64,000 nt of DNA from Escherichia coli (lineage in GTDB: Bacteria > Pseudomonadota > Gammaproteobacteria > Enterobacterales > Enterobacteriaceae): assembly GCF_013122565.1 (NCBI RefSeq), contig NZ_CP053258.1; one strand, written 5' to 3'. The notes below the pieces were generated by a model. It had not been told where the DNA came from and searched no databases. It worked only from the letters and a program-made list of their open reading frames with translations. The translations under genes were made by a program, and so were the position numbers. Shown here one piece after another: positions 44,664 to 44,860 of the stretch (positions are counted from its first letter, which is position 1; every line of letters begins with the position of its first letter).

Positions 44664-44707
44664 TCGTCGTAACCTGATTAACTGAGACTGACGGCAACGC
44701 CAAATTG

Positions 44708-44813
44708 CCTGATGCGCTGCGCTTATCAGGCCTACAAGGTGAATTGCAATTTATTGAATTTGCACATTTTTGTAGGCCGGATAAGGCGTTTACGCCGCAT
44801 CCGGCAACATCAA
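44708..44813. repeat. BIME/REP palindromic elements in the fliC 3' region
   Basis: GCCTGATGCGCTGCGCTTATCAGGCCTAC ... GTAGGCCGGATAAGGCGTTTACGCCGCATCCGGC: two REP units in inverted orientation. Confidence 0.6.
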
Positions 44814-44836
44814 GCGCAATTTGTCAGCAACGTGCT

Positions 44837-44860
44837 CCCCCGCCACCGGCGGGGTTTTTT
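44837..44860 (+). terminator. Rho-independent terminator after fliC
   Basis: CCCCGCC-ACC-GGCGGGG hairpin followed by TTTTTT. Confidence 0.6.

Follow-up and report, generated by a model that had tools for sequence, protein, structure and literature searches.

The window analysed here is a 64,000 nt (64 kb) stretch of Escherichia coli DNA, in which the list of open reading frames places the flagellar genes fliD (41659-43074, minus strand), fliC (43320-44663, plus strand), and fliA (44983-45702, plus strand). The fliC gene encodes a flagellin of 447 aa and its mRNA is the parent of the small RNA (sRNA) FliX. Both the open reading frame list and the sequence give its stop codon as TAA, at 44661-44663. 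The gene order fliD-fliC-fliA is likewise annotated in strain CP53, which has a FliC/FljB family flagellin at the fliC position and a fliC-fliA spacer that is 100% identical to that of the window. The variable region of this flagellin represents a rare allele, which 30 genomes carry in a set of 5,426 complete E. coli genomes. Across positions 43800-44380 of this region, the best match among these 5,426 genomes is 99.8%, not 100%.

The sigma-28 consensus is TAAAGTTT-N11-GCCGATAA. A sigma-28-type motif, TAAAGGTT-N11-GACGATAA, can be read from the plus strand at 43217-43243, which is where the fliC promoter is expected; at the level of the motif only, this putative promoter would drive the fliC-FliX transcript. 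The GCCGATAA motif, the sigma-28 -10 consensus, also occurs at 44950-44957, 26 nt upstream of the fliA start, and TAAACTTT-N11-GCCGATAA is found on the minus strand at about 43100-43135, upstream of fliD. These two are presumably the expected flagellar class 3 promoters.

The region 3' of the fliC stop codon consists, in order, of 43 nt of unique sequence, a z1 REP, a linker, a y REP, approximately 30 nt of unique sequence, and a terminator. The first-pass annotation had placed about 200 nt between the fliC stop and its terminator, with two inverted REP units in between, and this description holds: the stop codon is 174 nt from the terminator stem and 197 nt from the end of the U tract. The z1 REP, GCCTGATGCGCTGCGCTTATCAGGCCTAC, is at 44707-44735 on the plus strand and the y REP, GCCGGATGCGGCGTAAACGCCTTATCCGGCCTAC, is inverted, at 44772-44805 on the minus strand. 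They are separated by an AT-rich long (L) linker of 36 nt (44736-44771). Variable-gap patterns located both REP units, each as an exact match, while a fixed-spacing REP pattern had no match in the window because the two REPs differ in internal length. Each is the sole match to its own pattern in the 64 kb, where 0 are expected from 100 shuffles. The outer arms of the REPs form a 16 nt inverted repeat that is 94% complementary.

BIME-1 elements are made up of a z1 REP, a long L linker often with an IHF site, and a y REP (PMC3333891). By its sequence, the REP pair here is of the BIME-1 class, with the z1 REP as its left arm and the y REP as its right arm, and the pattern searches identify one BIME unit, single rather than in a tandem array, with its REPs in inverse orientation. 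Within the linker, on the minus strand at 44747-44759, is an IHF-consensus-like site, ATTCAATAAATTG, with 1 mismatch to WATCAANNNNTTR.

A terminator scan identified the intrinsic terminator shared by fliC and FliX at 44838-44860 on the plus strand, as the stem-loop CCCCGCCACCGGCGGGG (44838-44854) followed by T6. Its hairpin has an all-GC stem of 7 bp and a 3 nt loop, with U6 in the RNA, and it is the sole terminator-like site on the plus strand within 44400-45100. The REP part of the region belongs to a multi-copy family, with a median of at least 29 places per E. coli genome, and the segment downstream of it, containing the seed region of FliX and the terminator, is single-copy, with a median of 1 place per genome (blastn word-11). 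Two small open reading frames, 44705-44881 and 44712-44912, start within a REP and extend beyond the terminator. These were dismissed, since the transcript would stop before their stop codons.

Correspondence with fliX of strain K-12

In the RefSeq annotation of E. coli K-12 MG1655, the ncRNA fliX (b4827) is at 2001912-2002106 and is 195 nt in length, beginning 3 nt past the fliC stop codon. The window is colinear with this sequence and agrees with it at 190 of 195 positions; the differences are 4 substitutions and the lack of one U. The substitutions are at FliX positions 2, 73, 145, and 171, with position 2 a C instead of a U, and the U tract is U6 rather than the U7 of K-12. It is possible that the C at position 2, beside the 5' processing site, or the U6 could change cleavage or Hfq affinity.

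The landmarks of the published sRNA were taken from the oligonucleotide table of PMC10578931. The cloning primer SM044, with 1 mismatch, sets the 5' end of FliX at 44667, so that from this primer, the K-12 alignment, and the terminator the full-length sRNA here is 194 nt (44667-44860, plus strand). Primer SM673 (GAATTTGCACATTTTTGTAGGCCGG) matches exactly at 44756-44780 and sets at 44756 the 5' end of FliX-S, the processed form that is both shorter and more active. FliX-S is thus 105 nt here (44756-44860, plus strand) and, since the y REP is downstream of its 5' end, would contain one REP. The seed region, UUUGUCAGCAACGUGC, is at 44820-44835 on the plus strand, as defined by the FliX-S and FliX-S-M1 templates and primer SM644. 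Within it, the GCA triplet that is altered in the M1 mutant is at 44827-44829, inside GTCAGCAACG (44823-44832), and both are identical to K-12. The 28 nt target of the northern probe SM043 is at 44817-44844, the first 20 nt (44817-44836) being exact; its 1 mismatch overall is a T-to-C substitution of the K-12 alignment.

From these matches there is little doubt that 44667-44860 of the window is this strain's copy of fliX, the 3' UTR-derived Hfq-binding sRNA of E. coli. It shares with FliX and FliX-S of K-12 (b4827) the locus and strand, the seed, the M1 triplet, the sequence of the FliX-S 5' end, the BIME-1 body, and the terminator hairpin. It differs in the four substitutions, in U6 rather than U7, and in having a rarer flagellin allele upstream (447 aa versus 498 aa). 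With 97% identity to K-12, we infer that the expression of FliX, its processing sites, and its Hfq binding would be the same in this strain.

The first-pass annotation had named FliX as an sRNA derived from fliC, and it maps exactly here, with b4827 and primers SM044 and SM673 all placing the published sRNA in this UTR rather than elsewhere. The UTR had been put forward as a candidate for a processed regulatory RNA. The sRNA reading stands, yet it is no longer that of a candidate, as FliX has been characterised experimentally in K-12 (PMC10578931). The two REP units that had been stressed are real, but they do not hold the functional seed, which falls in the ~30 nt of unique sequence that separate the second REP from the terminator. 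The finding is therefore already known, being that of a published, experimentally characterised sRNA, and its re-identification adds no new biology. A reading from sequence alone did, however, recover FliX where automated annotation is silent.

There is no FliX family in Rfam 15, and the region has no matches at Rfam gathering thresholds. In the PGAP-annotated E. coli genomes among the matches listed, no feature is annotated under the FliX match. A permissive Rfam search gave ES036/CssrF (RF02751) at 44728-44769 on the minus strand, with 37.6 bits, equal to its gathering score, and a partial match to naRNA4/CssrE (RF02564) at 44775-44811, with 42.7 bits, below its gathering score of 59.5. The likeness to the former is in the BIME linker, which matches the linker of that model, and the likeness to the latter is in the y REP hairpin. 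Neither is the identity of the RNA. Both are matches to other copies of the same repeat family. ES036 is on the antisense strand, naRNA4 is sub-threshold and accounts for the first hairpin only, and neither covers the seed or the terminator. The miRNA matches in the permissive search are due to chance. Elsewhere in the window, Rfam gathering-level matches were found for the sRNAs DsrA (23452-23538, plus strand, 100.2 bits) and RseX (14960-15049, minus strand, 94.1 bits), and Rfam identifies five tRNA genes, at 4083-4155 (minus strand), at 5147-5233 (plus strand), and three clustered at 54654-54952 (plus strand).

CpxQ, SdhX, and FlgO are processed (type II) 3' UTR-derived Hfq sRNAs. FliX resembles these in its endonucleolytic release, in sharing the terminator of its mRNA, and in having its seed just upstream of that terminator. 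It is unlike them in that its body is mostly a repeated BIME element and in that the targets validated in K-12 are bound within coding sequences and not at ribosome-binding sites (PMC10578931). As a repeat, the element has the features of a BIME-1/RIB (RIP), with inverse z1 and y REPs, a long conserved linker, a predicted IHF-like site, a single copy, and a location at the 3' end of a transcription unit. It is set apart from other such elements by being transcribed within a defined sRNA and by the processing site in its linker.

Processing, folding, and pairing

Four sigma-28-dependent sRNAs, including FliX, have been described by Melamed et al. 2023 (eLife 12:RP87151, PMC10578931), the dependence of FliX on sigma-28 being demonstrated in K-12. 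FliX is seen as a ~200 nt band and FliX-S as a ~100 nt band with one REP downstream of fliC. In K-12, FliX is enriched with Hfq and is depleted by a 5'-phosphate-dependent exonuclease, and is therefore processed from the fliC mRNA. Both forms are recovered in Hfq co-immunoprecipitations, and RIL-seq finds them in chimeras with specific targets. Overexpression of FliX, and more strongly of FliX-S, reduces the number of flagella, flagellin, and fliC mRNA. Both also repress reporters of rplC, rpsS-rplV, and rpsQ and, when overexpressed, reduce the activity of class 2 and class 2/3 promoters. The binding of FliX-S to rpsS is lost with the M1 mutation (GCA to CGT) and is regained with a compensatory mutation in rpsS, and a chromosomal fliX-M1 mutant of K-12 has opposite, modest phenotypes. 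The pairing is inside the coding sequences of fliC and of the S10-operon genes rplC, rpsS, and rpsQ, and FliX is therefore regarded as a late 'decelerator' of flagellar synthesis in K-12 (PMC10578931).

By analogy, the fliC mRNA of the window would start from the putative sigma-28 promoter at 43217-43243 and end at the terminator at 44838-44860; the motifs are present for both, and both are presumed to be active. An endonucleolytic cut just past the stop codon, as seen in K-12, would free FliX of ~194 nt. FliX-S of ~105 nt would be freed by a further cut, likewise seen in K-12, which falls in the AU-rich linker separating the REPs and leaves a 5' end at 44756. FliX-S would then be made up of a 5' y REP hairpin, the ~30 nt unique segment with the seed, and, for Hfq, the terminator hairpin and U tail. 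Terminators followed by a U tail have an established role in Hfq binding, and the one here is the expected Hfq-binding 3' end. Going by the K-12 work, the seed would pair within the fliC, rplC, rpsS, and rpsQ coding sequences, lowering flagellar expression. The BIME-1 belongs to a repeated DNA family, and it happens here to make up the body of the RNA. The REPs have dozens of copies per genome and the seed and terminator segment is single-copy; regulatory specificity is therefore in the unique sequence adjoining the BIME-1, rather than in the REPs.

The 194 nt FliX has a predicted fold of -70.9 kcal/mol, against -55.1 +/- 4.5 kcal/mol for shuffled sequences (z = -3.55), and none of the 200 shuffles were as good. 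For FliX-S, the fold is -43.5 kcal/mol (z = -4.2 against shuffles), with the y REP as a 5' hairpin. In the predicted fold of the 194 nt RNA, the two REPs can pair into one very stable long hairpin, and in the MFE structures the 5' end of FliX-S (FliX position 90) is in the AU-rich apical loop of this REP-REP hairpin. This predicted location agrees with a cut by an endonuclease in a loop that is single-stranded and AU-rich. For full-length FliX, the prediction pairs the seed bases UUGUCAG with CUGACGG at positions 22-28, with an unpaired probability of 0.01-0.26. In FliX-S this CUGACGG partner is absent, and its removal might explain the greater activity of FliX-S.

Duplexes predicted between the seed and the published rpsS fragment are -23.0 kcal/mol for WT/WT, -16.8 for M1/WT, -15.9 for WT/M1, and -22.2 for M1/M1. 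These modelled energies match the published loss and restoration of rpsS binding. The seed in the window is identical to that of K-12, therefore the same pairing capacity is expected, assuming that rpsS is conserved in this strain. In fliC, the best-scoring predicted FliX site is at 43725-43740, near +405 and inside the published 171-460 probing fragment. Compared with K-12, this site has a synonymous GTG-to-GTA change (codon at 43729-43731), and the predicted duplex is weaker for it, at -15.5 kcal/mol instead of -20.2. It is possible that fliC autoregulation is weaker here as a consequence of this weaker predicted duplex. A FliX site was also sought in the fliC 5' fragment (-70 to +220), with weak, unconvincing duplexes as the only result.

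Presence and absence among E. coli genomes

At least 80% of the 319 nt fliC-fliA spacer is present in 3,502 of the 5,426 complete genomes, and 3,508 have the 70 nt segment of the seed and terminator (blastn word-11). The FliX element is thus in about 65% of the genomes and about a third are without it. In approximately 1,600 genomes the match begins at the terminator. Three of these have a fliC that ends in LLR-stop rather than LLQG-stop, and only ~19 nt, lacking both BIME and seed, separate it from the same terminator (loci L003 2482-2500, L004 2483-2500, and L005 2480-2500, compared with 44664-44837 of the window). That particular short form is common to at least 863 genomes by megablast, and most of the genomes lacking the element would have such a 19 nt 3' UTR. 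Counts from megablast with short queries are undercounts because SNPs break the 28 nt words, and prevalence was therefore recounted with blastn word-11.

The terminator is kept even in strains lacking FliX, and the fliA upstream region is likewise the same. A simple insertion of the BIME into the short form was considered and rejected: from stop codon to terminator the two forms are without similarity, and the fliC C-termini differ too. Judging from these sequences, the long and short 3' UTRs resemble a pair of old allele lineages rather than an occupied and an empty insertion site. FliX accompanies the LLQG-stop lineage of fliC across many H types. In 8 diverse FliX carriers, with flagellins of 436 to 585 aa, the seed core AATTTGTCAGCAACGT does not vary. 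The 7 nt that precede it (44811-44817) do vary in the 8 strains, being CAAGCGC here, AAAGCGC in K-12, and GAATGGT in most others, as do ~15 nt after the terminator (within 44861-44880).

The text of PMC10578931 makes no mention of FliX polymorphism within the species, which could be presented in a figure there, and puts the conservation of FliX as "among some of the Enterobacteriaceae". In a paper of 2026, too, Enterobacteriaceae are the only bacteria for which FliX is reported.

Possible roles of the element

It could be argued that the BIME acts only in cis, its REP hairpins blocking 3'-to-5' exonucleases and stabilising the fliC mRNA, with the short RNAs being decay leftovers that have no function in trans. 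REPs are known to stabilise mRNAs (summarised in PMC3333891), the REP pair can form a very stable long hairpin, and the phenotypes of chromosomal fliX-M1 in K-12 are mild (PMC10578931). The absence of the whole element from about a third of E. coli genomes also counts for this reading, since the element is therefore dispensable. It is nevertheless very unlikely to be the explanation, given the Hfq co-immunoprecipitation, RIL-seq chimeras, repression of rplC, rpsS, and rpsQ, and compensatory mutations reported for K-12 (PMC10578931), and given a seed that is outside the REPs, single-copy, and invariant across diverse strains. A stabilising role in cis is compatible with the sRNA role.

A role at the level of the DNA, in which a BIME-1/RIB that binds IHF, and possibly gyrase, is a topological or transcriptional insulator of fliC, with its very high level of transcription, from the fliA promoter 100 nt downstream, would accord with the z1 REP-long linker-y REP arrangement, of a class in which the L linker often has an IHF site (PMC3333891), with the predicted site in the linker, one mismatch from the consensus, and with the location at the 3' end of a transcription unit that is typical for RIBs, but it is exceedingly improbable as the explanation, since strains with the short 3' UTR keep the terminator and the fliA upstream region without a BIME, so that fliA expression needs no insulator, and it leaves the conserved unique seed segment unexplained. 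Such a role could coexist with FliX. The cis and DNA-level roles are both plausible side functions, but neither explains the Hfq binding, targets, and compensatory mutations of K-12 or the invariant seed.

With about a third of complete E. coli genomes being without FliX, the sRNA that is a 'decelerator' in K-12 would be strain-dependent and linked to the flagellin allele lineage. A tentative and rather doubtful proposal is that FliX is an allele-linked accessory regulator, instead of a fixed part of the flagellar circuit, and that in carriers the BIME-1 hairpin is a processing-dependent switch, where cleavage in the linker yields the more active FliX-S. If this were true, strains would differ heritably in the braking of flagellin synthesis, and the scaffold and activation mechanism of an sRNA would both have come from a repeat element. 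The absence of FliX at the level of the strain is a modest lead, possibly of specialist interest. In one FliX carrier, strain 162.2 (locus L007 378-470), fliA is annotated as a frameshifted pseudogene, therefore FliX is presumably not expressed there.
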